Shown here piece after piece: positions 4,933 to 60,629 of a DNA stretch of 64,000 nucleotides (position 1 is the stretch's first letter; the number at the start of each line of letters is the position of its first letter). This DNA comes from an uncultured Candidatus Saccharibacteria bacterium (GTDB lineage Bacteria; Patescibacteriota; Minisyncoccia; Phycocordibacterales; CSBR16-119): positions 5,608 to 69,607 of the forward strand of contig CAZPVH010000003.1 in NCBI GenBank assembly GCA_964589975.1, given 5' to 3'. The position numbers and the translations under genes are program-made. The notes under the pieces are model-generated. The model was not told where the DNA came from, ran no database searches, and worked only from the letters and a program-made list of their open reading frames with translations.

Positions 4933-5643
4933 CTATAAAAGTTTATCAGGATTTCCTTTTAAAATATGCTTGAGGCTCTCCGGCCCATGATTTAGATAAA
5001 GATCAAGAATTGATAGGTATGCGGCAAATTCTTTGCCCTTGAATTGCGGATACTCCGGATGCGTAAATTTCTGAAAGATGACTTTGATCCCCGCCTTGTC
5101 ATACTCTTCTGTTTTTAGATATGCTTTCGCCCCGCTTCCGGATAGATACGTATCGGCGCCGCAGACCTTGCATATTTCGAGTGTCACGTCGGTACCACCT
5201 TTTGCCTTTCCCGACAGCGACAACTCAGAGGCTCTCTTTATCTCTGTTTTTATTCCGAGCTTTTCTTTCAAGGCCAAAATCAAATCTAAGTTAAAATCAG
5301 CCAACTTCTCGTGTTTTTTAGCGTAATGGTTTTCCAAAAATTCTAGCGTTTTTGGCGCGTGTGGATGTTTCGCATAATTCTGTCTAAGTGTTGTGAGGTG
5401 CTTTTTGATTATCGGACTCTGCCAATTTATCCTTATATCGCTAATCCTTGCATCCGATGAGTGCTTAAGAAGTGGAATGGTGAGCCAAGTTGGTTTTCCG
5501 GAGGCCAAAATCTTATTCCTATTTTGAACGTTATTTTTTTCAAATTGAACGGTGTCTAAAATAACAAAAACGTCAGCCAAATGCATCTTGTGAAAAAATC
5601 CTAGCCAAGGAAAGGCCTCTGGCTGATGGATGGCAACTATCAT
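4933..5643 (-). CDS. WbqC-family protein (polysaccharide biosynthesis)
   Basis: N-terminus MIVAIHQPEAFPWLGFFHKM matches the WbqC-like family signature. Confidence 0.75.
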   Translation of the reverse strand: MIVAIHQPEAFPWLGFFHKMHLADVFVILDTVQFEKNNVQNRNKILASGKPTWLTIPLLKHSSDARISDIRINWQSPIIKKHLTTLRQNYAKHPHAPKTLEFLENHYAKKHEKLADFNLDLILALKEKLGIKTEIKRASELSLSGKAKGGTDVTLEICKVCGADTYLSGSGAKAYLKTEEYDKAGIKVIFQKFTHPEYPQFKGKEFAAYLSILDLYLNHGPESLKHILKGNPDKLL

Positions 5644-13759: not shown

Positions 13760-14321
13760 TTATTAAATGATTATCGTTATTAATTTTCGGGAAGCCTTCG
13801 CCTTTTATTGACGAAGAAGTCCCGTTGCACGCCAACCGATAAATCAGCCGGCGCGGCTTGTCCAGAGCTTGCGCTCCGGATTTCGTTTTGAAGATTTTAA
13901 ACTCTTCAAAACAGACAGACTTTCTTTGACTTCCACTCTCTGCCTTGTGGACGAGAGCGGAAAACGAAAGCTTAAGATCTGCCTTGTCGACATGGCGGAC
14001 CTAAACCCTCGACAAAATAAAATTACCGAGTTTTTAAAACTCGAAAAATTTTTTTATTGTCAATGATCAAGTATCCTTGGGATTTCTCCCCGGCCAAGCA
14101 GTCTCCCGCAAGGCCCAACAATTTTACAACCACCTGACCCAGAGGCCAAATGGTTTGTGGATAACCCTTTTACAGATTACCCCCAAATCATCGCATATTC
14201 TGGTAAAAAACTCAATACTGGGTTTTTTAGGAACACTGATGACTCGACACTTATGACGGCGCAAGAAAAGCCATATTACATAAGGACTATTTGACAATAA
14301 TAAAATTTAATTGCCTAAATG

Positions 14322-18162: not shown

Positions 18163-19239
18163 ATGCCACTCAAAAAGAAAAAGGCGGAAAAAGCAGAAAA
18201 GATTGTCGAGGAAAAAGACGAAGTTGTAAGCAAAGAAAGCACTGCTTCCGGAATTGAGAGCACAATCAAAGCCATCCAGACAAAATTCGGTGAAGGCTCT
18301 ATCATGAAGCTTGGCGACAGTCCGAAAGTTGGCGTAGGCGCTATTTCTACCGGATCGCTTGGTCTCGACGCCGCTCTCGGTATCGGCGGACTTCCAAAGG
18401 GTCGCATCATCGAAATATTCGGTCCGGAAAGTTCAGGTAAAACAACACTCGCCCTTCATGTCATATCCGAATCTCAAAAACGCGGCGGCATTTGTGCCTT
18501 TATCGACGCCGAGCACGCCATGGATCCTGATTACTCAAAGAAGCTCGGTGTGAAGACCGAGGAGCTCCTAATTTCCCAGCCGGATAACGGCGAGCAGGCA
18601 CTTGAAATCGCTGAGTCGCTTGTCCGATCAGGTAAGATCGACGTTATTGTCGTCGACTCCGTCGCCGCGCTCACCCCAAAGGACGAAATTGAGGGCGACA
18701 TGGGTTCGCACCAAGTTGGCAAACAAGCTCGCCTCATGTCCCAAGCCATGCGAAAACTCACTGCCCTTGTTTCCCGCACCAAGACAATCATCATTTTCAT
18801 CAACCAGATCCGCATGCAAATCGGCGTCATGTTCGGCAACCCGGAGACGACAACCGGCGGTAAAGCTCTCAAGTTCTACTCTTCCGTCCGGCTTGATATT
18901 CGCCGCATCGCTCAGATAAAGAAAGGCGAAGAGGTTGTGGGATCAAGAACAAGGGTCAAGGTGGTAAAGAATAAAGTCGCGGCTCCGTTTAAGCAAACTG
19001 AATTCGATATAATCTACGGCGAGGGTATCTCGATCGAGGGCGAACTCCTGGCGCTCGGCGAACGCATGGGGCTCATCAAGAAGTCCGGGGCGGCATACAG
19101 CTATACGCCGAAAGACGGCGACGAGGTGAAACTCGGCCGCGGCTACGACGCTACTCGCCAATTCCTCCGAGACAAAGAAAACAAAAAAGTTCGAGACACG
19201 ATACTTAAGGAAGTAACGAACGGATTAAAGGCAATCTAA
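18163..19239 (+). CDS. recA: recombinase RecA
   Basis: [13 protein letters not shown] Walker A; full-length RecA-like sequence. Confidence 0.95.
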
Positions 19240-19279
19240 ATACCAAATAAAAGAACCCCGCACTTAATTCGGGGTCCTT

Positions 19280-19822
19280 TTATTTTATGAGTTCCAGGAG
19301 TTTATAGACTAGCTGTTCTGGGTCTTCTTCGAAGACTATCGGCACATGACTCTTTTTGCCTTCGAGAGATAGGAGCCTGACCGCCTGATCCACTTCCCAA
19401 TCGCCAGTAAGGACTCCGACTGGCTTCCCCGCACGAAGCGCAATATCAAACTCGTGAAGACCCTCCATCTTCCCACAGCCGAGGATGACTGCGTCGGCGG
19501 ACTTTGACATAAACATATTCGCGCCGGCAGGTCCAAAGCCGGTATAGATGATCACATCGCCATGGTCGGTATCAAGCCTATAGCCATCGACATGCTCTTC
19601 TCTGCTCCCAGCCGGAGAAAAATAAATAACGTCGCCTCCTGCCGCTCGCGCGCCCATGGAAGCGAACATCGGAAAGCCGTGATGCGCGCCGGTCAGGACA
19701 AAGTGACCAGTCTTGGCGATCTTTCGGCCAATACGCTTAGCCTTGTCGAGAGTGTCGAGTGGAACGTTAGCTGGCTCAATCGCGCCAGCGATACAAATTT
19801 TGTACTTCTGCTTTTTTATCAC
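19280..19822 (-). CDS. TIGR00725/LOG(SLOG)-family Rossmann-fold nucleotide-binding protein
   Basis: KICIAGA...FVLTGAHHGFPMFASMGARAAGG...ILGCG resembles the LOG/DprA-like SLOG superfamily. Confidence 0.6.
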   Translation of the reverse strand: MIKKQKYKICIAGAIEPANVPLDTLDKAKRIGRKIAKTGHFVLTGAHHGFPMFASMGARAAGGDVIYFSPAGSREEHVDGYRLDTDHGDVIIYTGFGPAGANMFMSKSADAVILGCGKMEGLHEFDIALRAGKPVGVLTGDWEVDQAVRLLSLEGKKSHVPIVFEEDPEQLVYKLLELIK

Positions 19823-19910: not shown

Positions 19911-20001
19911 CTCCGCGAAGCAGAATATTTCTTTTTTGAGTCCGAGGACCTAGTGCGAAGACACGATCCCGCAGGACGAGAAAAAGAAATGTTCTGCGGA
20001 G
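19911..20001. repeat. conserved-core stem-loop element, copy A (core 19942-19975)
   Basis: Core CCGAGGACCTAGtgcgaagacaCGATCCCGCAGG inside an imperfect ~20-bp inverted repeat; it abuts the stop of the minus-strand RNase gene and precedes the hairpin terminator at 19875-19900. Confidence 0.7.
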
Positions 20002-21396
20002 CTAAAACTCCAGTTCTACTACCTGATTCTGCTCCGGCACGATAGCCGTAACGCCCAAATTATCGTGAAGTTTCTGCGCCAAGAACATTGAAACGCGTGG
20101 TTCACCCATGACCACAAATGCTTTTTTGAGCGTGTCTTTAGTGCTTTCGATGAATTTAACCAAGTGAAACGAATCTTTGTGTCCGGAGAATCCTTGGATC
20201 ATCACGACTTTCGCTCGAACATGCACGCGCTCGAACATAATCATAACCTGGTCTCGGCCTTCTTGGAGCATGCGTCCTAGAGTTCCCGGCACCTGATAGC
20301 CAGTGAGGAGGAGCGTCGCATTCGGATCCCCCAAATAATTCTTTTCATGATGAAGAATCCTTCCGCCAGAAGACATCCCAGAGCCAGCCATGATGATCTT
20401 TGGACCCGGAACTTTTAAAATATTTATTGACTCTTGAGTAATTTCCGTCTCCTTGAGCCCCGGGAAGCTAAAAATGTTGTCTCCCTGACTGATCTGCATC
20501 CGGACTGTTTCTTTAAGGAGATTTAGATGCCTTCTAAATACATCTGTTATACGAATTGCGAGCGGAGAATCAAGGAATATCTTTATTTGTGGAATCTGCT
20601 TCGATTCGACGAAATTATTGAGTTCGTAGAGAAATTCTTGGGTGCGTTCAAGTGAAAAGATCGGCACCATCAAAACGCCCTTCTTGTTATATGTTTCGAG
20701 TATGACTTTTTTCAAATTCTCTTCCCTCTCTGCGCGCTGCTCGTGATTTCTGTCGCCATAAACCGACTCCATGACAATATATTTGGCGTCGGTAATTTCT
20801 TCCGTATCAGCCAAAAGTGGCGACGGCGAGTTTCCAAGGTCCCCTGTAAAGACAATCTTCGAGCCATTGTATGTTATTTCAGCCATGACAGACCCGAGGA
20901 TATGTCCGGCGTCTTTGAAAAATACCGACAATGGCCCGAGGTGAAAATCCTCGTGATACTCATGCGTTTCCCACATATGATCAATCTTGGAGAGCACAGA
21001 TGTTCCGTACATTTCGCCGAGATGATACTTCGGCGCGGATTTCGAGTTTGCCAAAATATGCGCGGTGTCTGCAAGCATGACAGCCGTCAGATCGCGTGTA
21101 GCCGCGGTTCCGATAATTCTGCCCTTGAAGCCCTCATAAACAAGCTTAGGAATGCGGCCGATGTGATCTTCGTGAGCGTGCGTGACGATCAGTGCATCGA
21201 TATCTGCCGGATTATATGGGAATGGCTCCCAGTTATCGAATTCGGCCAGATGCTCACCCTGAATAAGGCCACAGTCCACAAGAAGACGAAACGGCTTCTC
21301 CCCCGATTCCGGCATCGTTTCGAGCAAAAAATTTGCGCCGGTCACCCAGCCCGCGCCGCCCGCAAAAGTAAGTTTTAATTTCTTAACGATGGTCAT
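20002..21396 (-). CDS. MBL-fold metallo-hydrolase, beta-CASP family ribonuclease (RNase J/CPSF-like)
   Basis: HxHxDH motif (VTHAHEDHIG), followed by beta-CASP-like and RNA-specificity regions. Confidence 0.8.
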   Translation of the reverse strand: MTIVKKLKLTFAGGAGWVTGANFLLETMPESGEKPFRLLVDCGLIQGEHLAEFDNWEPFPYNPADIDALIVTHAHEDHIGRIPKLVYEGFKGRIIGTAATRDLTAVMLADTAHILANSKSAPKYHLGEMYGTSVLSKIDHMWETHEYHEDFHLGPLSVFFKDAGHILGSVMAEITYNGSKIVFTGDLGNSPSPLLADTEEITDAKYIVMESVYGDRNHEQRAEREENLKKVILETYNKKGVLMVPIFSLERTQEFLYELNNFVESKQIPQIKIFLDSPLAIRITDVFRRHLNLLKETVRMQISQGDNIFSFPGLKETEITQESINILKVPGPKIIMAGSGMSSGGRILHHEKNYLGDPNATLLLTGYQVPGTLGRMLQEGRDQVMIMFERVHVRAKVVMIQGFSGHKDSFHLVKFIESTKDTLKKAFVVMGEPRVSMFLAQKLHDNLGVTAIVPEQNQVVELEF

Positions 21397-23347: not shown

Positions 23348-23399
23348 TCTTTTATATTTTTATAAACTTATCCATCACTTCCTTCTCTACTTCATCTCT
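23348..23399. repeat. direct repeat, copy 1: duplicated 3' end and terminator tail of the 909-aa ATPase gene
   Basis: 23362-23399 matches 24620-24657 at 37 of 38 positions, and the preceding T-tracts also match. On the minus strand it would encode ...RDEVEKEVMDKFIKI* versus the ATPase C-terminus ...RDEVEKEVMDKFMKI*. Confidence 0.7.
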
Positions 23400-24565: not shown

Positions 24566-24608
24566 TACATATAAAAGACCTCTTTATCATAAAAGAGGTC
24601 TTTTATTT
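24566..24608. terminator. bidirectional hairpin terminator between gene 24104-24559 and the ATPase gene
   Basis: aaaagacctctttatcataaaagaggtctttt perfect hairpin with T/A tracts on both sides. Confidence 0.6.
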
Positions 24609-24657
24609 TTTATATCTTCATAAACTTATCCATCACTTCCTTCTCTACCTCATCTCT
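24599..24657. repeat. direct repeat, copy 2: authentic 3' end of the ATPase gene
   Basis: Partner of 23348-23399; the two copies bracket a ~1.2-kb cassette containing the two small secreted-protein genes at 23490-24559. Confidence 0.7.
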
Positions 24658-27339
24658 CGGTCGTCCATACTTGAGGAATGAAAGTTCTTTGAGAGAGTCG
24701 ACAATATCTGGATTTCCTGCTGGTAAGTCTTGTGTACGAATATTGAATGGCTTAACTGGCGTACCGTCGACGAGCATGGACACATACGCATTACGGTTAT
24801 CTAGCTTCATGATGTCTTGAACGGTAAAGACTGGGTCCAAACGCTTCTGCAAAATCTCCGCATCTTCGGAACTAATACGGAATATTGCCATCGAACCAAC
24901 GTTACCGAGTACGGCATTTCGAATATCGTCCGAGAGTTGTGACAAATACTGGTGGGCAACATTAAGACCGAGCTTGTATTTTCGTGCTTCAGAGAGAATC
25001 GAAGAAATAGATGGGGTGGTGAAATTCTGAAACTCGTCTATGTAGAGATAAAACGGTGGAAAATTTGCGCCGTGCGAGTCGGCACGAGAAAGTGCTGCCA
25101 TTTGGATCTTTCCTACCAGAATGAGACCTAAGAGGTTTGCATTGATATCTCCAAGTCTTCCCTTCGAAAGGTTTACCAGTAAGATTTTCTTGTTATCAAT
25201 AATCTCGCGGAAATTAAAGCTTGATTTCTCCTGAGCGATAATTGGACGCATAATTTCGTTAGAAATAAATGTGTCGAATTTGGACGTAATATACGGAACG
25301 AAGTTCTCTAGTCCTTGCTCACCTGTAGTCGCTTCAGCGGTTTTCCAGAATTGCTTGATGATTGGGTTCGTACAACGTTCTAGCTTCATATCACGGAATT
25401 TCTTGTCAGAGAGAACACGACCAATTTCAAGAATAGTATTACCTGTGGACGGATCAGACATCACAAGTCCGGCAGAATTCTTGAAATACTGCTCGAAAAG
25501 TGGTCCACCGGCGGTCTTCATATCAAAGAGCTGACTAAAAATACCGAGGAGTTCGTTAATCACAAGCGTCTTCTGTTCCGGACGCTCTGGATCAAACTCG
25601 AGCATATTGAGGCCCATTGGCCGCGCAGTTGAGGCTGGATCGAAATAAATGACGTCATCAATGCGATGTTTTGGGATATAAGAAAGGATTTTCTGGATGT
25701 CGGATCCGTGTGGATCTATGTAGCAAACACCGTCACCCCGCTCGATATCCTGACGAATCATGTTCATCATAATACCGGTCTTACCAGTTCCAGTCTGGCC
25801 GATAACATAAAAATGCCTCATGCGATCGAGCTCCTGGAGGTAAATATCGGTATCAACTCCGCGATGCGTGTTGATACCGATTTGAACGCCGCCACCAACC
25901 ATATTGAGCGGCGCAGACGCGGAACCTGCTTTTGACTCTTTGAGCTCTGGTGAAGACGCAAGACCTACCGGGAAATGCACGAGCGTCGAGAGTTCTTTGA
26001 AATTGAGCGGCAAGGCCGAAGCTTCGGTCGGCAGGCGGAATGAAAATGAATGGAGAAACTGATCCAAATGCTTGTCGTCGACCTTTTTAAACTTGAGACT
26101 GTTTGAGCTTGGCTTCTCGAACTGAGAGAACGCCGATTCAATGTTTGCAATTATCTCGCCTGTTCGAATGGCGCTATCTGACGAAGCCACGACACGGATA
26201 TTCGCCAGCATGATGGTCGACTTGATCTTCTCGGTAATATTTTCGACAGCTTTGTCGTCGATATCCTTTTCTTCCTTCTCTTCTGTCTTCTTGGGTCCTT
26301 TCCAAAGCATTGTTCCAAAGCTCTTTAGCTCTTTCTTTACGTCGCCAAACTCATCCAATATATGCTTAAGTTTTTCGCCTTTTTTCACCTTATCAAGATA
26401 TCCGGAGAATTTCTTAATGTATCTGTCCCCCGCCGGCATGATGACGAACTGGAGCGCCGCGCCTTCTTTCGTTTTATCAAGCTTCGAGAAGGCGTTCAGG
26501 ATCGTATTCATCGGATCATGATCAAACTCATCGTGAGTTTTGAGTGGAAACACCTCATGATCGCCAAACTCTGCCGATGCCGCCATAATCGAGCCGCCTG
26601 AGTTAAAGACATTGTAATCATTCGTAACTTCGGTGATCTTTGCATTCTTGTAAAATGACAGTATCTGTTTTTCAAGCAGAGTTTTTCGATCTTTTGGAAT
26701 GGAGACATAAAAAACGATTTCCGGTGAATCATGTGATACGGCAATCTCAATTGTGAAATATTGCTTATATTTATTATTCTCCCCATTCGATATGGTCTGC
26801 ATACCGGCATAAAACTGTTCCATAGCGGAAAGAAATTCTTTGAAAGTTTTTTCTTTCTCTTCTGAAGCTGGCAGAGTTACTTCAAAAAGCGCGAGGTTGA
26901 GAGATTTCCATTCTGGCGAACTCTCGGAGAGCCCGGGGACTTGATGAGAAGTGTGGAGGAACTGAATCAAGAATCTGTGAAAGTCGTCCTCAAGATGCGG
27001 ATTATGCATACGGGAAACGATATCCATGGTGTTTTTTATACCGTGCTCTAGGAGTAGGCCATAAAGCTCTTCGATTTGACTATCATGTTCTTCTGGCTTG
27101 AGGGCCAGGACCATGCTTTCGGCCTCTTTCTCTGGCACACGGTAGCTTTCATGAAGCACTTCGGCTGAGTCGGCTTTTTTGTACGCGGAAAGCGTCTCAT
27201 GAGTCACTTCTTCGCGAGATTTTTCAAGCTTAGCACCAGCGTTCACTCTCTCTTGTTCGGCAACTTTCTCGCGCAAATAAGCGAGCTCCTCTTCAGGAGT
27301 CTTGAACGCGCCTTTTTCCATGATCTGAGCCCCTTCCAT
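24610..27339 (-). CDS. large P-loop ATPase of the FtsK/HerA/TraG(VirD4) superfamily with ~430-aa N-terminal domain of unknown function
   Basis: Walker A GQTGTGKTG followed by DPHGS; Walker B LYIDEFQNF; downstream AHQYLSQL motif as in type-IV coupling/HerA-like ATPases; no TM segments. Confidence 0.7.
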   Translation of the reverse strand: MEGAQIMEKGAFKTPEEELAYLREKVAEQERVNAGAKLEKSREEVTHETLSAYKKADSAEVLHESYRVPEKEAESMVLALKPEEHDSQIEELYGLLLEHGIKNTMDIVSRMHNPHLEDDFHRFLIQFLHTSHQVPGLSESSPEWKSLNLALFEVTLPASEEKEKTFKEFLSAMEQFYAGMQTISNGENNKYKQYFTIEIAVSHDSPEIVFYVSIPKDRKTLLEKQILSFYKNAKITEVTNDYNVFNSGGSIMAASAEFGDHEVFPLKTHDEFDHDPMNTILNAFSKLDKTKEGAALQFVIMPAGDRYIKKFSGYLDKVKKGEKLKHILDEFGDVKKELKSFGTMLWKGPKKTEEKEEKDIDDKAVENITEKIKSTIMLANIRVVASSDSAIRTGEIIANIESAFSQFEKPSSNSLKFKKVDDKHLDQFLHSFSFRLPTEASALPLNFKELSTLVHFPVGLASSPELKESKAGSASAPLNMVGGGVQIGINTHRGVDTDIYLQELDRMRHFYVIGQTGTGKTGIMMNMIRQDIERGDGVCYIDPHGSDIQKILSYIPKHRIDDVIYFDPASTARPMGLNMLEFDPERPEQKTLVINELLGIFSQLFDMKTAGGPLFEQYFKNSAGLVMSDPSTGNTILEIGRVLSDKKFRDMKLERCTNPIIKQFWKTAEATTGEQGLENFVPYITSKFDTFISNEIMRPIIAQEKSSFNFREIIDNKKILLVNLSKGRLGDINANLLGLILVGKIQMAALSRADSHGANFPPFYLYIDEFQNFTTPSISSILSEARKYKLGLNVAHQYLSQLSDDIRNAVLGNVGSMAIFRISSEDAEILQKRLDPVFTVQDIMKLDNRNAYVSMLVDGTPVKPFNIRTQDLPAGNPDIVDSLKELSFLKYGRPRDEVEKEVMDKFMKI

Positions 27340-29274: not shown

Positions 29275-29290
29275 TAAATCATCTTTTGGT

Positions 29291-29370
29291 GGAGCAACAT
29301 GCCCATTTTAGAATCCGAGGACCTAGCGTAGCGATCCCGCAGGATTATAAAATGGGCAAATTGCGGAGCG
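29291..29370. repeat. conserved-core stem-loop element, copy B (core 29315-29343)
   Basis: Core CCGAGGACCTAGcgtagCGATCCCGCAGG inside an inverted repeat; it lies between the rpsR stop (29375) and the hairpin terminator at 29245-29274. Confidence 0.7.
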
Positions 29371-29374
29371 TTCG

Positions 29375-29575
29375 CTATTCAGCGACGAATGGAAGGAGTC
29401 CCATGATCCTGGCGCGTTTGACGGCGAGAGAGACTTTCTTCTGATTCTTTGAAGAGAGCTTGGTCTTTCGCTTACCCATGAGGCGTGCAGAAGCATCCAA
29501 GAACTGCTTCAGAATCGCAGTGTCCTTGTAGTCGATATGCTTTATATTGTTCGATGAGAAATAATCTTGCTGCAT
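29375..29575 (-). CDS. rpsR: 30S ribosomal protein S18
   Basis: S18 signature; rpsF-ssb-rpsR context. Confidence 0.85.
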   Translation of the reverse strand: MQQDYFSSNNIKHIDYKDTAILKQFLDASARLMGKRKTKLSSKNQKKVSLAVKRARIMGLLPFVAE

Positions 29576-29585
29576 AAATTAATAT

Positions 29586-29657
29586 TAGTGAATAGTGGTT
29601 AGTGAATAGTGTCTAGGAACTATCTTCTAATCACTAGAAGCTAGTCACTAGTCACTC
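29586..29657. repeat. compound direct/inverted repeat in ssb-rpsR intergenic region
   Basis: Tandem TAGTGAATAGTG-like units on the left and CACTAG units on the right form an imperfect palindrome between the ssb stop and rpsR start. Confidence 0.55.
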
Positions 29658-29658
29658 G

Positions 29659-30135
29659 TTAAAACGGGATGTCTTCTGGATTTATATCATCATCCGGATA
29701 CTCAATAGTCTCAAGCTCTGGAGCGCGCATTGGAGCATCCTGCTCTGGAGAATTGGCTGGCGCGGAGTTATTTCCTCCGCCATAGTTCCCTGCCCCTCCT
29801 CCCATCCCCCCAGCTCTCGGGCCAAACTGAATGGTGTCGGCGATGATTTCAGTTCTATACTTCTTGGCTCCATCGGCGTCCCAGCTTCTAGTCTGCATGC
29901 GGCCTTCCACGAGTATAGAAGAACCCTTCTTCATGTACTGAGCAACTATCTCTGCCTGGCGGCCGAAAGTCACAACATTGTGAAAATCAGTTGATTCTTG
30001 CTTGGCGCCGTTCTTGTCCTTCCAAGTTCGGTTTGTAGCGACGCTGAAATTTGTGACTTTGATACCCGACGGAAGGGCTTTCATCTCGGGATCGCGGGTC
30101 AGATTCCCAATGACCATGGCTTTGTTGAGATACAT
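29659..30135 (-). CDS. ssb: single-stranded DNA-binding protein
   Basis: OB-fold SSB N-terminus, Gly-rich linker and acidic tail DDDINPEDIPF. Confidence 0.9.
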   Translation of the reverse strand: MYLNKAMVIGNLTRDPEMKALPSGIKVTNFSVATNRTWKDKNGAKQESTDFHNVVTFGRQAEIVAQYMKKGSSILVEGRMQTRSWDADGAKKYRTEIIADTIQFGPRAGGMGGGAGNYGGGNNSAPANSPEQDAPMRAPELETIEYPDDDINPEDIPF

Positions 30136-30301
30136 CCCGTTTGAGATAGCAAATTATTAATTTGCGTATCCTTGCTTAAATTTTGATAATTTTTGCGACC
30201 GTTGGTTCATTATACTTTTTGTCATAATTTCTAACCATGGGATCTCTAACGGGATACATAAGTTAGAAGTTATTTGATAACGGTAACTCCATTGTAGGAG
30301 A

Positions 30302-30781
30302 CTATTTAACTTCTGGCAACGACTCCTCCTCAACCATTTCCTCAATCTTCTTGTCAACAGCTGCTTCATCCATCGGAGCCGCGCCGCCTGCGGCTTCCGC
30401 GGCTGTTCTCTTGACTGGTCGCTGGTAAGCAAGTTTTGGGGTTGCCAATGTGCTCTCTCGGACAGTCTTCACGATTATGAATCGGAGAATATCGAGGTTC
30501 TTATCCATCAGCGCCTTGAATCCTTCGATCTCTGATGCTTCGATTTCAAACTTTATCCAACCAAAGTATGCTGTTCTAAATCGGCGAACTTTGTTTTCAA
30601 TCTCCTTTCCAAGCTCGTAAGCAAGCTCTCGCATCTGAGGAAACTGTTCAGCAATGACTGATGCTTCCATCTTCGCCAAGGTATCCTTTATACCAGTGAC
30701 AACTTTAGTAACTTCGTCTTCTGACAAGTTCGGGAGAACATGGTATCCGAGCTCGTAGATTTTCTTGTTTGTTTCTTCCAT
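30302..30781 (-). CDS. rpsF: 30S ribosomal protein S6 (with C-terminal extension)
   Basis: S6-like N-terminal domain; position upstream of ssb-rpsR. Confidence 0.8.
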   Translation of the reverse strand: MEETNKKIYELGYHVLPNLSEDEVTKVVTGIKDTLAKMEASVIAEQFPQMRELAYELGKEIENKVRRFRTAYFGWIKFEIEASEIEGFKALMDKNLDILRFIIVKTVRESTLATPKLAYQRPVKRTAAEAAGGAAPMDEAAVDKKIEEMVEEESLPEVK

Positions 30782-30911
30782 AATTTTTACTTTATTTATA
30801 ATGTTTTATCCAATAAAAAAACGCATCGTATCGGACCAAGCGACGGCCTGTAATTTCAAGGCAGTCGAACGAGACGTTGTAGGGATATTAGTATAAATCT
30901 TCTTTTTTGGC

Positions 30912-31103
30912 AAGAGAAAAGCCTTGTCATCGACAAGGCTTTTCGGGCTGAATCGTGCATGGGGCGATGAACCCCTACCGATACCTACCGTATGTTGATC
31001 CCCCTAGGGAGACTGCGGCTGAAGAACTTTAGGCCATAGCGGGAGCGGCATTTTGCCGCCCCGCCACAGCCTTTCGGAATTTGGTGTTTTGGACTTTTTG
31101 TTC
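30912..31103 (-). ncRNA. candidate ~190-nt structured noncoding RNA of unknown class
   Basis: Bounded by the promoter above and a hairpin plus U-tract terminator (30920-30940). No ORF with an RBS; contains an extended GC-rich helix (GGCUGUGGCGGGGCGGC-AAAAU-GCCGCUCCCGCUAUGGCC) and further hairpins. Confidence 0.3.
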
Positions 31104-31109
31104 TCTCAG

Positions 31110-31137
31110 ACTATAGCATATACGAAATATTTGTCAA
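31110..31137 (-). promoter_or_regulatory. sigma70-like promoter (TTGACA-16-TGcTATAGT) driving a noncoding transcript toward rpsF
   Basis: On the minus strand: tgcTTGACAaatatttcgtatatgcTATAGT, with a TGn extended -10. Confidence 0.5.
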
Positions 31138-31150
31138 GCAATTTTCATTA

Positions 31151-31187
31151 TCCTTAAAAAGGAAAAGCCCCGCGTAAGGCGAGGCTT
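31151..31187 (-). terminator. intrinsic terminator of the tatD transcript
   Basis: aagccccgcgtaaggcgaggctt hairpin followed by UUUUCCUUUUU on the minus strand. Confidence 0.55.
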
Positions 31188-31376
31188 CTTGGATCTGTCA
31201 CAAGGGGCGACAGACTTCCATCAAGATCTTCATCTTCAAAAGTACCGACATCCCTCGACGGGAGGAGGACATGGACATCCTCCTTGTTCCCGCCGGGAAT
31301 GCATCTACAGAACATCAGCTGAAGTCTTTCGACCCACTATCGTGTTTGCAGCACTGCCAATGTCCGTACTTTTATA

Positions 31377-32189
31377 TCACAATGGCCATACTGGGTCAAC
31401 GCAGAACAAATTTTTGACGTTTTGGAGAATTTGAAGGCGGACGGATTCTGGGTCGAGCCCTTTGATTTCCGCAATTTTCTTTACGATTTCTTCTACCATC
31501 CACGGCTCGCATTCCTTCCCTCTATAAGGATTTGGCGCAACAAATGGTGCGTCTGTTTCGGTAAGGATCCGATCGATCGGTGTCATTCGAATGACTTCGT
31601 CATAATCTCTTGCGAATGTGATTACACCGGTGAATGATAAGTAAAACCCGAGTTTCAGGAAACGCTCTGCGACATCAGGACTACCAACAAAGAAGTGGAC
31701 GTCGCCGCGGATATTTTGATCTTGGCGAGCTTCAAGAATTTCTAGGACATCTTCATATGCATCCATTGTTCCCTTTTGAGGACGAACATGCAGAATTAAG
31801 GGAAGATTTTTTTCGATCGCAAGATCAATTTGTTTAATGAAAATTTCTTTCTGAAGATTTTTTGTTTCTATATCGCTCGCTTCAATACGGAAATAATCGA
31901 GCCCACATTCACCAATCGCAACAACCTTATCCTTGCTTGCCAACTCTTTGAACTTATCAAGATCAAACTCTTTCTTAACAGCGTCACTAGGATGAAAACC
32001 GACTGAGGCGAATAAGTTCGCAGATTTTTGCGCAATTTCCACCGCGAGCAAAGAAGTATCGTAGTCGGTGCCGACAGTAATCGTGCCAACTTCTTTTTCT
32101 TCGAGAACTTTTATTATCTCACCTTGACGCTCCGACAGAGGAGACAAATTCAAATGAGAATGAATATCGAAATATTTCATACTAGGCAA
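31377..32189 (-). CDS. tatD: TatD-family metal-dependent hydrolase (DNase)
   Basis: MKYFDIHSHLNL start and TatD fold; conserved metG-tatD pairing. Confidence 0.85.
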   Translation of the reverse strand: MPSMKYFDIHSHLNLSPLSERQGEIIKVLEEKEVGTITVGTDYDTSLLAVEIAQKSANLFASVGFHPSDAVKKEFDLDKFKELASKDKVVAIGECGLDYFRIEASDIETKNLQKEIFIKQIDLAIEKNLPLILHVRPQKGTMDAYEDVLEILEARQDQNIRGDVHFFVGSPDVAERFLKLGFYLSFTGVITFARDYDEVIRMTPIDRILTETDAPFVAPNPYRGKECEPWMVEEIVKKIAEIKGLDPESVRLQILQNVKNLFCVDPVWPL

Positions 32190-33663
32190 GTCGATTGAAT
32201 AGTGGGGTTTCTGGCATCTTGTTTTCTTGAACCAAGAATAATATTTTCTCAGCTGTCTTTGGTAAAAATGGTTTCAACCAGATAGAAAGTTGATTTATAT
32301 GTGAAAGAAGTATCCCAACAACCTCCTTCGCTTCATCAGGATTCGTCTTTATCAGACTAAAGGGCTTTTTTTCGGCAATAACACCATCCACGGAGGTGGC
32401 GAACAGCATTATTTTCTCCATTGCCTTGCTCAAATCGTAATCACTAATATGTCCCCTGATCTCACTATCCAATGTAAGATAATACTGATTTGGCTCTGGG
32501 AAAACATGTGGTTCTTTAACGCCATATGTCGTTGCCATTTTCATCACTCTCGAAACGAGATTGCCGATACCATTCGCTAGCCCTGCCTGATAAGCTTCCC
32601 TAATAGATTCCAGAGTCATATCAGAATCTTCAAATGGATTAACGTGCCTGAGCAAATAGTAACGCAAAACGTCCGAAGAAAGGTCGCCTGCAACGGATTC
32701 ATATTCTTTTACGAGATCATAGGGGTTTATTACGTTTCCAAGAGATTTGGACATCTTCTGTCCACCTGAATTTATAAAACCATTAATGATGATATTATCC
32801 GTATTAGGTAAATCTGCTGCGAGAAGTATTGCCTGCCACATCATGGACTGCTGGCGAACGTTGTCTTTGCCGCAATACTGAATCTTTAGGCCGTCCTGCC
32901 AGAATTTCTTAAAGTTTCCGCTACTGTCTTCTGGCCAACCGAGCGTCGAAACATAGTTCGTTAGCGCGTCAAACCACACATACATTACATGAGACTCGTC
33001 TCCGGGCACCGGCACGCCCCAAGACATCTTTTCAGTTGGTCTCGAGATAGAAAAATCCTGAAGTCCCCTTTCGATAAAGGCTTTCATCTCATTGAAACGG
33101 AAATCTGGAATAACAAGTTCTGATTTGTCTGCGTAGAGTTTTTTTAGCTTATCTTCAAGTTTCGAAAGCGCGAAGAAATAATTCTCTTCGTCTCGAAGCT
33201 CGATCTCCTTGTTCGGATGGATCGGACATTTGCCATTCTCGAGCTCCGAGTCGGTTTTCTCAAGCTCGCAGCCGACGCAATATTTCGTCTGATAGTTCTT
33301 CTTGTAGATATAGCCGTTCTTATTAACTCGGCGCCACATTTCCTGCGCCGCTGAGACATGGTGCTCATCGGTAGTGCGAATGAAATGCACGTCGTCTGAA
33401 ATTCCAAGCAGATCTTTCAGTCCTCGAAATTTCTCAGCATAAAAATCAACGTATTCCTTTACGTCCTGTCCCGCTTTCGTGGCGTCAGAGAGAAGTTTCT
33501 GACCATGTTCGTCTGTTCCGGTATTAAAAAAAACAGAATGTCCAAGAGATTTATAAAACCTTGCCAGCGCGTCAGCGCGGATTATTTCCATAGCAAAACC
33601 GACGTGCGGGTCAGAATTAACATATGGGAGCGTCGTAGTGATATAAATATTTTTTTTACTCAT
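32182..33663 (-). CDS. metG: methionine--tRNA ligase
   Basis: YITTTLPYVNSDPHVGFA HIGH region and KMSKS region. Confidence 0.9.
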   Translation of the reverse strand: MSKKNIYITTTLPYVNSDPHVGFAMEIIRADALARFYKSLGHSVFFNTGTDEHGQKLLSDATKAGQDVKEYVDFYAEKFRGLKDLLGISDDVHFIRTTDEHHVSAAQEMWRRVNKNGYIYKKNYQTKYCVGCELEKTDSELENGKCPIHPNKEIELRDEENYFFALSKLEDKLKKLYADKSELVIPDFRFNEMKAFIERGLQDFSISRPTEKMSWGVPVPGDESHVMYVWFDALTNYVSTLGWPEDSSGNFKKFWQDGLKIQYCGKDNVRQQSMMWQAILLAADLPNTDNIIINGFINSGGQKMSKSLGNVINPYDLVKEYESVAGDLSSDVLRYYLLRHVNPFEDSDMTLESIREAYQAGLANGIGNLVSRVMKMATTYGVKEPHVFPEPNQYYLTLDSEIRGHISDYDLSKAMEKIMLFATSVDGVIAEKKPFSLIKTNPDEAKEVVGILLSHINQLSIWLKPFLPKTAEKILFLVQENKMPETPLFNRLA

Positions 33664-34705
33664 TTTCTTGCTTCATAAGACGCTCTTTCTCGAGGTCATT
33701 TATATATTCTAACATTGTCACAGCAACTGGAACTCCCAGGATAAGTCCCCAGAAACCAGCCAAGGAAACCCCGACAAGCACCGCCAAAATAACAACCAAT
33801 GGTGAAACTCCCGTCATCTTGTTCACCACGAGTGGAGCAATCAAATACCCTTCAAGTTGTTGAACAACGGTGTAGAGAGCTACAACCATTAGGGCTAGCG
33901 AGATTCCCCCGGCGCCAAATGCCAGCGAAACTGCCGGGATAGCCGCCAAAAATATTCCGAAAGGAATAAGCTCAAATATAGCCGCCACAACGGCCAGAAG
34001 AATAGCCTGTGGCACGTCGAGAAGCGTTAGACCGATGAAGGTCAGAACTCCGACAACAAGGCCGAGGATCATCTGACCCTGCATCCACCGAGCGATCTTT
34101 CTCTGGGAGCGCTGCCAGAGATCAATTACATACGCCTCTTTTCGGACAGGCGTCAGGATGCGGAGGAAGGATTCGATTCCATCCGCCGAAACAGACAGAT
34201 AAAAAGAGATTATGATAACCAAGACGACATTCAAGAGTCCGCCGAAGAAAGCTGACAAAGTGTTCCCGAATCCGGAAAGAATAATTCCCAAGAAGACTTC
34301 AAAGTTTGAAATTAGATTTCCGGACTCTGACAAACTTTCTGCGGAAGGCAAACTTTCAGGATTTATGCCACCGAGAAATGACGCGCCTTGGGGAATATAC
34401 TCGGATATGACCGGCAAGATATGCGTGATCTCGACTACCAAGACCGGCAGGAAGAAGTAGAAGACTCCGGCAAAGAAACAGAAGGTTATGAGATACATGA
34501 GGACAATCGAGAGTATACGACTCATGCCGAAGCGAATTCGGGCGGCTTCTGCCGAGGTGCGAATGAAGGAGGCTAAAACCACAGACGTCAAAACCACCAA
34601 AACCAAGCTCTTCAGGAAGAAAAGCGAGAAGACGAAAGCCGATAGGACCAAGATATTGAAGAGGGTCCGTCGGCTGATATTTACGGTATATACCTTGTTT
34701 TCCAT
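33656..34705 (-). CDS. AI-2E (PerM/UPF0118) family transporter
   Basis: Eight-TM architecture and family-typical central loop. Confidence 0.75.
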   Translation of the reverse strand: MENKVYTVNISRRTLFNILVLSAFVFSLFFLKSLVLVVLTSVVLASFIRTSAEAARIRFGMSRILSIVLMYLITFCFFAGVFYFFLPVLVVEITHILPVISEYIPQGASFLGGINPESLPSAESLSESGNLISNFEVFLGIILSGFGNTLSAFFGGLLNVVLVIIISFYLSVSADGIESFLRILTPVRKEAYVIDLWQRSQRKIARWMQGQMILGLVVGVLTFIGLTLLDVPQAILLAVVAAIFELIPFGIFLAAIPAVSLAFGAGGISLALMVVALYTVVQQLEGYLIAPLVVNKMTGVSPLVVILAVLVGVSLAGFWGLILGVPVAVTMLEYINDLEKERLMKQENE

Positions 34706-48081: not shown

Positions 48082-48126
48082 GTATCTATAGATAAAAAAG
48101 TTCCCCGCACATCGTGCGGGGTTCTT

Positions 48127-48615
48127 TTATACTGCGTGGTTTTCTACAACCTCAATGCCCATCTCATGCAAACTCCTACGGACAGCTCGTCCATGCGCAT
48201 TGAATTGATTCAGGGCGCTCTTCTCAGAGATCGTTTCGCTGATGAACCTGTTTTCGCGCTCGGTCAACTCGTATAAGTAGCCCCCTCCCTCCCAATCTTC
48301 ATTGAAGATAAAGATGAAGGATTTTTCTGCTCCCCTGTTGAGACCCTTGCAGCGGATCCAGCGTTCCTTCAGGGCGTCTCGGAAGAAGCCTTTGGCCTTC
48401 ATAGAAGTGAGGATCGGCGACAAGCTTGTCAGCTTCAGGATGTCCAGAAAGAGAAGTCTCATCTCTCCCATGTCTTCGTTCGTAACCGAGACTTCTTTGA
48501 AGGGCACATACTCAGGAAACAGATCGATGCTCCGGAGCGTGAGACTCTTCTTACCCTCAGGTGTAATCACTGACACCAGATGAAGCCTTGGGATGCCCCA
48601 CTTATTGTTTTCCAT
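48127..48615 (-). CDS. hypothetical protein
   Basis: 162-aa ORF, no recognised family. Confidence 0.45.
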   Translation of the reverse strand: MENNKWGIPRLHLVSVITPEGKKSLTLRSIDLFPEYVPFKEVSVTNEDMGEMRLLFLDILKLTSLSPILTSMKAKGFFRDALKERWIRCKGLNRGAEKSFIFIFNEDWEGGGYLYELTERENRFISETISEKSALNQFNAHGRAVRRSLHEMGIEVVENHAV

Positions 48616-55932: not shown

Positions 55933-55956
55933 TTCCCTTTCTCTCCCTCTCCTCAG

Positions 55957-56043
55957 CAAAAGAAAAAACACATTTCCGAATCCCGAGGACCTAGTGACGT
56001 TGTCACGATCCCGCAGGGTGAGGAAATGTGTTTTTTCTTTTGC
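55957..56043. repeat. conserved-core stem-loop element, copy C (core 55983-56017)
   Basis: Core CCGAGGACCTAGtgacgttgtcaCGATCCCGCAGG inside a perfect 21-bp inverted repeat (gcaaaagaaaaaacacatttc / gaaatgtgttttttcttttgc); between convergent dfrA and rplK stops. Confidence 0.75.
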
Positions 56044-56046
56044 TTC

Positions 56047-58281: not shown

Positions 58282-58340
58282 GAGCGTAGGTGTTGTTTGT
58301 CTTTAATCTACTCCTCCCCCGCTGCTTTTGCAAGCATGAG

Positions 58341-58364
58341 AAAATCCGCTTCACAGCGGATTTT
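58341..58364 (-). terminator. intrinsic terminator following element D (downstream of fusA)
   Basis: aaaatccgcttcacagcggatttt hairpin followed by a UUUUCUC tract on the minus strand. Confidence 0.65.
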
Positions 58365-58377
58365 CCTCTTTCTCTAA

Positions 58378-58462
58378 GCGGAGCAAAATCTGAATTTTCT
58401 GAACCCGAGGACCTAGCAAAGCGATCCCGCAGCGGTGAAGAAAATTCAGATTTTGCGGAGCG
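58378..58462. repeat. conserved-core stem-loop element, copy D (core 58405-58432)
   Basis: Core CCGAGGACCTAGcaaagCGATCCCGCAG inside a 17-bp inverted repeat; it lies between the fusA stop (58467) and the hairpin terminator at 58341-58364. Confidence 0.7.
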
Positions 58463-58466
58463 ACTT

Positions 58467-60629
58467 TTATTTCGCTGGCGTGCCTGCGCGCTTCTTGATG
58501 ATCTCTTCGGCAACGTTCTTTGGCACAACATCGTAGCGGAGGAATTCCATTGTGAAGTTTCCGCGGCCGGCCGTCATCGAACGGAGATTATTGATGTAGC
58601 CGAACATTTCAGAGAGTGGTACGACAGCTTTAATAGCCTGGACCATTCCTCGGTCTTCGGTACCCTCAACGAGTCCTCGCTTTGAAGCAATGTCGCCTGT
58701 GATGTCTCCCATGTTTGCATGAGGGGCCACAACTTCAACTTTCATCATAGGCTCAAGGATAACTGGATTCGCTTTTCGCGCAGCTTCCTGGAAGGCCATG
58801 GAGCCGGCGATCTTGAAGGCGATTTCTGAGGAGTCGACATCGTGGTATGAACCGTCGTAAAGCTCGACGCGAACATCAGTAATTGGATAACCAGCCACCA
58901 CACCGCGCTGCATAGATTCGATAATACCCTTTTCGACAGCCGGGATAAATTCGTTCGGGATGACGCCTCCTTTGATGGCGTTAACGAACTCGAGCCCGTC
59001 TTCACGAGTCGTGTTCTTTGGCAAGTCTTCAACAGGAATACTGTAGTCGATTGGAGAAAGGCGAATTCTGACATGGCCGTACTGACCGCGTCCGCCGGAC
59101 TGCTTAACGTATTTGTGATCGACTTCGGCATTGCCTTTGATGGTTTCGCGGAAAGCGACCTGCGGCGCGGAAGTGTTCGCCTCAACGGAGAATTCCCTCT
59201 TCATGCGGTCAACGAGGATTTCCAAGTGTAGTTCTCCCATACCAGCGATGATGGTTTCGCCAGTTTCAGGATCAGATGATACGCGGAATGTTGGATCTTC
59301 GGCGGAGAGACGCGACAGGGCAAGGCCCATTTTCTCCTGATCAGCCTTAGTTTTCGGCTCGATTCGCATGGAAATAACCGGCTCAGGGGCGATGATTCGT
59401 TCAAGGATGATCGGCTTGTCTTCATCGCAAAGAGTGTCAGATGTCGTTGTGTCTTTGAGGCCGACGGCCGCGGCAATTTCACCGGCGTAAACAACCTTTA
59501 CCTCTTCTCGTTCGTTGGCGTGCATACGGAGGATTCGGCCAATACGCTCTTTAGTATTTTTTGTCGCATTGTAAACATATGATCCGGCTTCTAGAGAACC
59601 CGAGTAAACGCGGATGAAAGTGAGCTGGCCGACGTATGGATCAGACTGAAGCTTGAACGCGAGCGCGGAAAGAGGCGCTGTGTCAGAAGGCTCCCTGGTG
59701 ATAGTCTCTCCGGTATTCGGATCAATTCCGTGAGTCATCGGGATATCGAGAGGCGATGGCAAATAGTCGACAACGCCGTCAAGGACGAGCTGAACGCCTT
59801 TGTTCTTCAAAGCTGATCCCGCAAAAACTGGGAAGATAGCATTATTGATGACAGCCTTTCGTAGGACCTTCTTTAGATCTTCGATTGGAAAATCTGTCTT
59901 GCCATCAAGATACTCTGACATCATCTTCTCGTCATTTTCGACGATTTTTTCTAGGAGTTCCATATGGAATTTCTCCGCCTCGGTCTTGTAAGCTTCAGGG
60001 ATTTCCATTTCAATAACATCTTTGCCCTTGTCGCCTTCGAACCTGTAGGCCTTCATCTTTAGGAGGTCGATGACAGCTTCGAACTGGTCTTCTAGACCGA
60101 TCGGGATCTGAATTCGAACGGCTTTCTTCGTGAGGCGGGCTAGGATAGACTCGTATGATTTCTCAAAAGAGGCTCCGGTTCGGTCGAGCTTGTTGATGAA
60201 GCAGAGGCGCGGAACATTTCCTTCGTCGGCATAGCGCCAGTTCGTTTCTGACTGAGGCTCAACGCCGGCCACGCCGTCAAAGACGACGACTGCGCCGTCG
60301 AGAACGCGGAGGGATCGCTTAACTTCGATCGTGAAGTCGATGTGTCCCGGGGTGTCGATCAGGTTAAAGCGAGTCTTCTTCGTCGTGTCGCCTTTCGGCA
60401 TGTAAGTCGGGCTCCAGAAACAAGTTGTGGCGGCGGAGGTAATGGTGATTCCCCTCTCTCGCTCCTGCTCCATCCAGTCCATGACCGTGTCGCCCTCGTG
60501 AACTTCGCCGATCTTGTGGGACATTCCGGTATAAAAAAGCACGCGCTCAGATGTCGTGGTCTTACCAGCATCGATGTGCGCGATGATTCCAAAATTTCTA
60601 ACTTTCTCCAGAGGATAATCCCTTCCCAT
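58467..60629 (-). CDS. fusA: elongation factor G
   Basis: G domain [14 protein letters not shown]; full EF-G length. Confidence 0.95.

Follow-up and report, generated by a model that had tools for sequence, protein, structure and literature searches.

The miniature transposable elements with inverted repeats (MITEs) of the Correia/NEMIS and ERIC/IRU families are 70–150-bp hairpin repeats that lie near genes, are co-transcribed with them, serve as RNase III substrates or modulators of mRNA stability, and are polymorphic in their presence or absence. Repetitive extragenic palindromic sequences (REPs) occur mostly downstream of open reading frames (ORFs), are transcribed, and differ in location between strains; they are thought to stabilise mRNAs or to act as partial terminators, and to be mobilised in trans as single-stranded DNA (ssDNA) hairpins (PMC3733652; bioRxiv 10.64898/2026.03.23.713779). 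Here we describe a hairpin element, copy D, that follows the fusA gene in a 64,000-nt stretch of contig CAZPVH010000003.1 from an uncultured Candidatus Saccharibacteria bacterium, hereafter the window. The genomes of Saccharibacteria and other bacteria of the candidate phyla radiation (CPR) measure about 1 Mb and contain very little non-coding DNA, and to our knowledge almost nothing is known about the non-coding elements of CPR bacteria. We think it reasonably likely that copy D belongs to a lineage-specific, modular family of palindromic elements, REP- or MITE-like and mobile or recombining, which forms hairpins in the 3' untranslated regions (3'UTRs) of a Candidatus Saccharibacteria clade. 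The family is apparently undescribed.

The elements are built from up to four parts: a 7-nt GCGNAGC (on the window + strand; GCUNCGC in mRNA), present as a direct repeat at both ends; a stem; in most copies, a tandem purine mismatch; and an exchangeable apical module, which in the subfamily of the window is an invariant core of 12 + 11 nt around a small variable hairpin. In copy D (Table 1), the arms caaaatctgaattttct (58384–58400) and agaaaattcagattttg (58439–58455) are perfect complements, with an eighteenth pair between G58383 and C58456, and the core CCGAGGACCTAG-CAAAG-CGATCCCGCAG spans 58405–58432. The fusA ORF, of 720 amino acids, ends in TAA at 58467–58469, separated from the GCGGAGC flank by a 5-nt gap. 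Direct reading of the sequence bore out all the coordinates given for copy D in the original prediction, together with its claim that GCGGAGC is repeated outside both arms in the same orientation; the ORF list and a terminator scan likewise agree with its placement of the element 5 nt after the fusA stop and ahead of a terminator. As RNA, copy D folds with z-scores of −4.9 (+ strand) and −4.1 (− strand), none of 200 shuffles folding equally well, and as DNA with z-scores of −4.6 and −3.6; the fold thus lies well beyond shuffles for either nucleic acid and either strand. Copies B, C and D of the window are not an assembly artefact, because three contigs from independent Logan assemblies (L031, L032 and L038) are 100% identical to the window across them. 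One of these, L031, which comes from the same strain and equals window 29315–34461, terminates exactly within copy B's core, as would be expected of a repeat whose multiple copies interrupt assembly.

A search for the core with up to three mismatches gave two matches in the window against 0.00 expected, and a covariance model scored at every window position recovered exactly four copies, A to D, all on the + strand. Each abuts the stop codon of a minus-strand gene, encoding a beta-CASP nuclease (A), rpsR (B), rplK (C) and fusA (D). A canonical terminator follows copies A, B and D, which, lying between stop and terminator, are therefore inside the 3'UTR of the upstream gene; its mRNA would carry the complement, GCUCCGC...CCUGCGGGAUCG...CUAGGUCCUCGG...GCUCCGC. 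Among the four copies, the arms differ yet stay complementary, the core is identical, and the apical hairpin varies in length with a co-varying stem. Copy C sits between the convergent DHFR and rplK genes. Together with L002, a copy from another genome that is also placed between convergent genes with no other terminator, it may double as a terminator.

Beyond the window, an exact-pattern scan for the core, run on one genome per species, found four more copies in three metagenome-assembled genomes (MAGs) labelled uncultured Candidatus Saccharibacteria (L001–L004), downstream of genes for an ABC ATPase, a LOG-family protein, uvrD and rpsR. A pattern scan of metagenomes returned 12 stretches. 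In four of them (L006, L008, L011 and L013), the identical core tops a hairpin of another kind, rod-like, ~150 nt long and with GGGG...CCCC at its ends, which we call type 2. The type-2 hairpins have no GCGNAGC flank and stems unlike those of the window, 14 of 49 predicted pairs are compensatory, and they are variably oriented with respect to the genes around them, as a stand-alone small-RNA gene would be; ARAGORN found no tRNA or tmRNA at these loci. The hairpin of L013 stands just upstream of a truncated smpB-like ORF. The other eight metagenome stretches had no hairpin context and were treated as chance, as were seven stretches from a scan of viral contigs, in which the covariance model finds no element. 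Rfam 15 gave no match across the whole window at the gathering threshold; around copy D, searched at a permissive E ≤ 10, it gave nothing beyond sub-threshold noise, and the type-2 loci had no match either. BLAST of copy D against phage and plasmid sequences found no match, and a search of the published literature for the core sequence, or for an RNA motif, REP or MITE in Saccharibacteria or CPR, found nothing relevant.

The stems covary strongly. In an alignment of 12 sequences, which was made to the covariance model and so leans toward structure, 97.1% of cells form standard pairs and 20 of 27 pairs change on both sides; none of 500 shuffles reached any of five measures. As a control, sliding the partner by 1–3 columns lowered pairing to 39–55%, and a free RNAalifold run gave 17 of 27 compensatory pairs. 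At pair 50/102, within the stem of the apical mini-hairpin, six sequences have CG and three have UA. Element stems are A/T-rich and 13–23 bp long, and their sequence drifts while pairing is kept through compensatory changes. The tandem mismatch, 3–5 bp below the core and retained in seven of eight copies, reads G.A/A.G on the + strand and pyrimidine–pyrimidine in the mRNA. The stems of non-orthologous copies are alike (D and L001 match at 15 of 20 positions), a likeness that points to common descent by dispersal. The invariant core, which is shared with the type-2 hairpins, is probably a specific protein-recognition module, as it is conserved far beyond what pairing requires.

At the base of the stem lies the GCGNAGC repeat. 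Bare GCGGAGC is not enriched in the window (11 found, 8 expected) and GCGNAGC occurs 16 times on the + strand against ~10 expected, but its placement is non-random: in copies A, B and D it falls, on either side, precisely at the base of the stem. From CTGCGGAGC beside copy A and TGCGGAGCG beside copy B, the original prediction had suspected an additional short conserved flank. Both remarks are accurate, and the flank is indeed enriched: exact or with one mismatch, it borders six of the eight core-bearing copies on both sides (A, B and D of the window; L001, L003 and L004). The six include one-mismatch partners on the far side that the prediction had not listed, GCGAAGC at 19915–19921 (A) and GTGGAGC at 29289–29295 (B). 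The two copies without a flank, C and L002, are those between convergent genes, with longer stems.

The flank reaches further than the core. It recurs in at least seven further post-stop hairpins with differing interiors in related Saccharibacteria, and is present on core variants in L035 and L036 and on hairpins without this core that follow rplK, rpsR and DUF8128 genes in relatives; the flanked elements lie after rplK (L024, L025, L029), rpsR (L033, L036), DUF8128 (L035, L036) and the beta-CASP gene (L035), and in L042. The consensus is GC-GNA-GC (GCGGAGC, GCGAAGC, GCGTAGC), with nearly all variation at N, position 4. About 20 of 30 flanks fit GCGNAGC exactly and the others are one position off, with two (the GCTTATGTTTTGCTCCGT type and GACTCCGC) shifted or variant. 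Because GC is self-complementary, pairing between the two flanks can add two GC/GC pairs to the hairpin, around a symmetric 3 × 3 GNA x GNA loop; these pairs are predicted by RNAalifold and held in 96% of cells. The flank is a more general feature than the core, marking the edge of a replaceable unit in a wider set of post-stop hairpins.

The elements are tightly tied to stop codons. All 17 begin no more than 5 nt from a stop codon or share bases with it, with a single orientation relative to that gene; in four, the first G of the flank is taken up in the TAG stop, and the stop of L002 falls within the element. Since the elements come after the stop and before any terminator that is present, they belong to the upstream gene's 3'UTR, and their position predicts a GCUNCGC-hairpin-GCUNCGC pattern in the mRNA.

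Orthologous sites were gathered via EF-G and S18 homologues and their contigs. At the fusA site, none of seven relatives (L024–L030; EF-G 95–86% identical) has an element, a plain terminator directly following the stop; copy D would thus be a gain in the window lineage, or the element would have been lost repeatedly elsewhere. At the rpsR site, the core element is found in the window strain and in the L004/L039 group, which carries the orthologue of copy B; L033 has the same GCTCCGC flanks around a different, two-hairpin interior, L036 a diverged-core version, L042 an expanded version of 160 nt, and L035 and L037 a terminator only. The beta-CASP site is filled in the window and in L035 and empty in L036. 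The genomes compared at these two sites (L035, L036, L037) are ~87% identical at the nucleotide level. At the rplK site, where the window has copy C, L024, L025 and L029 carry GCTTCGC-flanked hairpins with three different interiors, and L030 has none. Two of these genomes, L024 and L029, are 98.3% identical over 5.8 kb, and at the 3' end of rplK they match at 100% as far as GCTTCGCA and from TGCTTCGC onward; between the GCTTCGC repeats, 112 nt with two internal hairpins stand against a plain hairpin of 49 nt. Identity breaks exactly at the repeats, so that the 7-nt repeat bounds a unit replaced as a block. Comparison of related genomes shows gain, loss or replacement of elements.

Table 1. Features of copy D, its relatives and neighbouring genes. 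Coordinates are those of the window unless a contig is named; flank pairs are given as stop-distal / stop-proximal.
Feature	Coordinates	Strand	Basis or remarks
Copy D, 84-base hairpin	58378–58461	+	Direct reading of sequence; flank pair GCGGAGC / GCGGAGC
fusA (elongation factor G, EF-G) coding sequence	58467–60629	−	ORF list; Pfam GTP_EFTU, EFG_III, EFG_IV, EFG_C; homologues of ≤95% identity named elongation factor G
Stop-proximal boundary repeat GCGGAGC (fusA mRNA: GCUCCGC)	58455–58461	+	GCGGAGC or GCGAAGC at this position in A, B, L001, L003, L004
Stop-distal boundary repeat GCGGAGC	58378–58384	+	Partner positions elsewhere: GCGAAGC, GTGGAGC, GCGAAGT, GCGTAGC
Outer stem, left arm	58383–58400	+	18 bp with 58439–58456; sequence varies among copies, complementarity kept
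Outer stem, right arm	58439–58456	+	Pairs with 58383–58400
Tandem mismatch GA	58401–58402	+	Opposite G58437 and A58438; G.A/A.G on + strand, U.C/C.U in mRNA; 7 of 8 core copies
Core 5' half CCGAGGACCTAG, invariant	58405–58416	+	Identical in 8 of 8 strict copies and 4 metagenomic type-2 hairpins
Apical mini-hairpin, variable	58417–58421	+	CAAAG in D; 5–11 nt elsewhere, with co-varying stem
Core 3' half CGATCCCGCAG, invariant	58422–58432	+	Comparison among copies
Bidirectional intrinsic-terminator-like hairpin after the element in the fusA transcript	58340–58365	either	Terminator scan
Copy A	19915–20002	+	Flank pair GCGAAGC / GCGGAGC; TAG stop of beta-CASP nuclease gene overlaps last flank base
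beta-CASP nuclease gene upstream of copy A	20002–21396	−	Pfam and stop-position reading
Copy B	29289–29369	+	Flank pair GTGGAGC / GCGGAGC; 5 nt after rpsR stop (rpsR 29375–29575, minus strand)
Copy C	55955–56044	+	23-bp stem, no GCGNAGC flank; 2 nt after rplK stop
Flank pair, L001			GCGAAGT / GCGGAGC
Flank pair, L003			GCGGAGC / GCGGAGC
Flank pair, L004			GCGTAGC / GCGAAGC
Type-2 hairpin, L013	L013:3395–3585	−	
Type-2 hairpin, L008	L008:1945–2140	−	
Type-2 hairpin, L011	L011:930–1125	−	
Type-2 hairpin, L006	L006:115–310	+	

For a mobile or recombining family, the unit would move or be exchanged as DNA, by way of a hairpin or single-strand intermediate, and an enzyme acting in trans would use the GCGNAGC repeats for recognition, cleavage or crossover. 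An element already in place would behave in a REP/ERIC-like manner, its 3'UTR stem-loop blocking 3' exonucleases or presenting a double-strand RNase with a site. A bolder version, which we hold to be doubtful, would place it in a novel class of mobile cassettes borne on hairpins in ultrasmall CPR bacteria, each a long palindrome bounded by direct GC-GNA-GC mini-hairpins, recombining strand-specifically after stop codons as folded ssDNA, and carrying interchangeable apical modules; its 29-nt core would then be a new structured nucleic-acid motif that also tips a stand-alone RNA of ~150 nt in other uncultured bacteria.

Several points weigh against mobility or recombination as the explanation. 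Pfam scans of ~50 window ORFs revealed no transposase, recombinase or HUH gene. Block replacement is seen in a single near-identical genome pair, and a search of 20 loci at the fusA, rpsR, rplK and beta-CASP sites turned up no empty site whose flanks could be aligned: the intergenic DNA is too diverged except in L024 and L029, both of which are filled, with different cassettes. The compensatory divergence of the stems and the invariance of the core across species look like marks of long-term purifying selection, not of recent copy-and-paste, and the sharp breakpoints at the 7-mer could just reflect a constrained motif bordering a fast-evolving hairpin. A purely DNA-level mechanism gives no explanation for the tight adjacency to stop codons. 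The purine-rich mismatch motifs (GNA x GNA and tandem G.A) are found on the strand complementary to the mRNA, so that a function in sense-strand RNA would have to work with pyrimidine-rich loops. Finally, the sample is small, with ~17 elements from MAG and metagenome contigs.

The main rival, which we regard as unlikely but still a serious contender, is a purely cis-acting structured RNA without mobility: a regulatory 3'UTR hairpin, such as a protein or RNase site, a small ribozyme or an aptamer, in which the two GCUNCGC copies form a basal helix and gains and losses are ordinary regulatory turnover. The fixed orientation between stop and terminator, 0–5 nt from the stop, suits such an RNA well, but the upstream genes are functionally unrelated, encoding EF-G, L11, S18, a beta-CASP nuclease, an ABC ATPase, UvrD and a LOG-family protein. 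Strong covariation, and a core that remains invariant while neighbouring proteins differ by ~17%, are likewise what it would lead one to expect, and yet the element is not conserved at orthologous sites and a whole cassette has been replaced between its flanks in genomes that are 98.3% identical. The recurrence of the core at the apex of ~150-nt rod-like hairpins at independent loci speaks for a structured RNA, and the lack of any Rfam family, even at permissive thresholds, against one. Evidence from the strands is divided in the same way. The sense strand is the one certainly transcribed, and its core can form a nearly continuous helix (CCUG/CGGG and GGGAUC/GGUCCU) with three G.U pairs, but the conserved mismatches in that strand are pyrimidine–pyrimidine. 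A strain difference in the rpsR element can also be counted in favour of RNA: two groups that are 98.2% identical (L039/L041/L045 and L040/L043/L044/L046) differ by one C-to-T change in its 5' arm, in mRNA sense, which replaces a G-C pair by G.U if the sense strand is read and by A.C if the antisense strand is, so that a G.U pair is kept in the L040 group in the sense strand only.

As a sub-hypothesis, the functional form could be the folded ssDNA of the GCGNAGC strand, antisense to the upstream gene, with mini-hairpins at its ends and apex, sheared G.A pairs and a long stem, recognised by a strand-specific enzyme such as an HUH/Y1 transposase, a tyrosine recombinase acting on folded DNA (compare integron attC) or a primase. 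We consider this improbable. GCGNAGC is the published consensus of a very stable DNA mini-hairpin, the d(GCGNAGC) of Hirao and co-workers, the RNA counterpart of which is much weaker and the stability of which is not predicted by standard parameters (review, PMC13037366). Nearest-neighbour models do not represent this compact structure. The element flanks, in all their variants and with their variation at N, and several apical loops (GCGAAGC, GCGTAGC) match this consensus, although a mini-hairpin in vivo is a supposition from sequence. The ends repeat each other directly and not in inverted form, as is the case in strand-specific ssDNA transposition, and the apical region ranges from a plain loop to a branched structure, which might be likened to the variable terminal structure of attC; against this, Pfam identified no such enzyme among the window ORFs. 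The antisense strand folds better, by up to 14 kcal/mol, in 10 of the 17 elements and worse in four (mean antisense-minus-sense difference of ~−3 kcal/mol over 16 tabulated elements), nine of 12 isolated stem mismatches are G.T there, and the conserved non-canonical motifs are purine-rich on that strand. An unbiased typing of arm mismatches, however, gives 21 against 17, and folding energies and mismatch typing together show a weak trend in favour of the GCGNAGC strand. Moreover, with a GC skew of −0.05 on the + strand and the given gene orientation, the GCGNAGC strand is the template for both the leading strand and transcription, hence the least exposed as ssDNA. For an antisense promoter that would yield a + strand RNA of copy D, no promoter-like site was found, and a bidirectional terminator lies just upstream on the + strand.

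An ordinary cut-and-paste MITE with GCGGAGC as its target-site duplication, or a coincidental direct repeat, would fit a multi-copy, presence-polymorphic inverted repeat bracketed by a 7-bp direct repeat but is hardly credible, since the same GCGNAGC flanks elements at ten or more different loci in several species, where a target-site duplication would vary by site, since variable terminal arms around an invariant centre are the reverse of a MITE, and since two exact 7-mers at the stem base have a chance of ~6e-5 per element; recurrence of the heptamer at so many independent loci excludes chance repeat and ordinary duplication alike and in effect refutes this account.

A number of other features were noted around these loci. 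Directly after the fusA terminator, a possible minus-strand promoter for a downstream 179-amino-acid gene (TTGCAA-17 nt-TAGATT, 58305–58333) matches 8 of 12 consensus positions, below the scan threshold; the gene is without a Pfam match. In the window, a 50-nt direct repeat, 94% identical and 1258 nt apart (23350–23399 and 24608–24657), corresponds to the last codons and stop of a 909-amino-acid DUF8128 gene (24610–27339, minus strand), and its second copy looks like the remnant of a duplicated 3' end. Bidirectional terminator hairpins at two unrelated loci, 19247–19281 and 48096–48130, are 80% complementary or similar over 35 nt (ATAAAAGAACCCCGCAC...GGGGTYCTTTTAT), which suggests that plain terminators in this genome share a common template too.

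Related genomes hold additional hairpin repeats. A second family in a related Saccharibacteria genome (L024:8859–8950, 14169–14260 and ~15590–15690; L029:3541–3632 and 5215–5306) has the stem CCCnCACAnCTACTTTTTGAT, the interior GGGCTCCGCCAwGCGCCTTnGGCGCG, which contains a GCTCCGC heptamer, and a complementary arm. A palindromic element of ~180–200 nt (...gtccgtactgtttgaggaaagg...cctttct...tacgg..., plus ggttacttttgc...ggcaaaagtaa) occurs at non-orthologous sites in L035 (15078–15259, and after the beta-CASP gene at ~18330–18560), L036 (9382–9564) and L033 (~10340–10560), with 84% identity between L035 and L036, and looks like another mobile intergenic repeat. Elements at L033:10200–10328 and L025:16929–17062 share another interior, in which a co-varying stem (GGCGCG/CGCGCC against CCGGC/GCCGG) carries a conserved loop (TTGTAAACA/TGTAAAC), and hold a nested unit that echoes the outer design, GACTCGC-AAAA-stem-TTTT-GCTCCGT.

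What makes the element notable is its setting in a reduced CPR genome: it is multi-copy and structurally constrained, follows the stop codons of core genes (EF-G, L11, S18), turns over among close relatives, and combines a 7-nt boundary with an invariant core. It offers a handle both on the protection or processing of mRNA 3' ends and on mobile DNA that survives in reduced genomes. Saccharibacteria have reportedly become transformable only recently (PMC10633639), and the boundary repeat, if a recombination site, is a possible natural landing pad for genetic tools in this group. If the element is only a REP-like passenger, it makes a modest addition to the catalogue of bacterial palindromic repeats; the appeal of the finding lies mainly in its host group, in how cleanly the boundary is marked and in an invariant core that calls for an explanation.

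Several known motifs were considered for copy D and set aside. The terminator scan reports only the separate hairpin at 58340–58365, and the 3' arm of the element ends in UUUUGCUCCGC, unlike an intrinsic terminator. The tandem G.A/A.G on the + strand lies in a continuous helix without the bulge of a kink-turn or box C/D-like motif. The stops are TAA or TAG, with no UGA for a bacterial SECIS or recoding hairpin. Only GAGGACC is shared with the sarcin-ricin loop and only CGATCCCGCA with the T-arm of tRNA-Ala, and conserved loops of the GGAAGCAGC type, as in domain IV of the signal recognition particle (SRP) RNA, are missing. The CS-6 motif of ssoA, TAGCGT, is not conserved among copies, and the elements are not tandem as in TIGR arrays.

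Among described systems, REPs and their composites (BIMEs, REPINs) come close. Like them, the present elements are short palindromes, downstream of ORFs and between co-directional or convergent genes, that form 3'UTR hairpins at strain-variable locations (PMC3733652; bioRxiv 10.64898/2026.03.23.713779), co-transcription being predicted here from position. REPs, however, are 20–40 bp long, are conserved throughout the stem, and have at one end an unpaired tag, GTAG or CGTC, whereas this family has arms of 18–23 bp or more with free sequence, an invariant centre, and a GCGNAGC tag directly repeated at both ends; the tag and conserved palindrome that define a REP or REPIN are thus absent. The host is a CPR bacterium, and no gene for a REP-associated tyrosine transposase (RAYT, a Y1 transposase) was found among the window ORFs. 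Transcribed MITEs of the Correia/NEMIS and ERIC/IRU type are, as generally known, also gene-adjacent hairpin repeats of polymorphic presence, but classical MITEs have conserved terminal inverted repeats and a site-dependent duplication (TA for Correia); here, a constant 7-nt direct repeat recurs from locus to locus, the arms vary, the centre is invariant and the apical modules are exchangeable.

The attC sites of integrons, by general knowledge, are likewise imperfect hairpins just 3' of a gene that conserve structure over sequence, vary in terminal structure, recombine through the strand complementary to the coding strand, and have a 7-bp core site marking the cassette boundary. Their core sites (RYYYAAC/GTTRRRY) are inverted, though, and belong to ORF-carrying cassettes beside an intI/attI platform; the GCGNAGC repeats are direct, the neighbours are housekeeping genes, and the window holds neither such cassettes nor such a platform, its ORFs including no integrase. 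Non-autonomous IS200/IS605 elements (PATEs) resemble the family, as far as is generally known, in their same-orientation small end hairpins, the lack of a variable target-site duplication and ssDNA mobility. They differ in that their ends are imperfect hairpins of ~20 nt with specific cleavage tetranucleotides; the long central palindrome has no counterpart in IS200/IS605, and neither TnpA nor TnpB was found among the window ORFs. The d(GCGNAGC) mini-hairpin, for its part, is a physico-chemical motif, not a genetic element. The family is set apart from those described by a constant 7-nt direct repeat at both ends, by free arms around an invariant centre, and by exchangeable apical modules.

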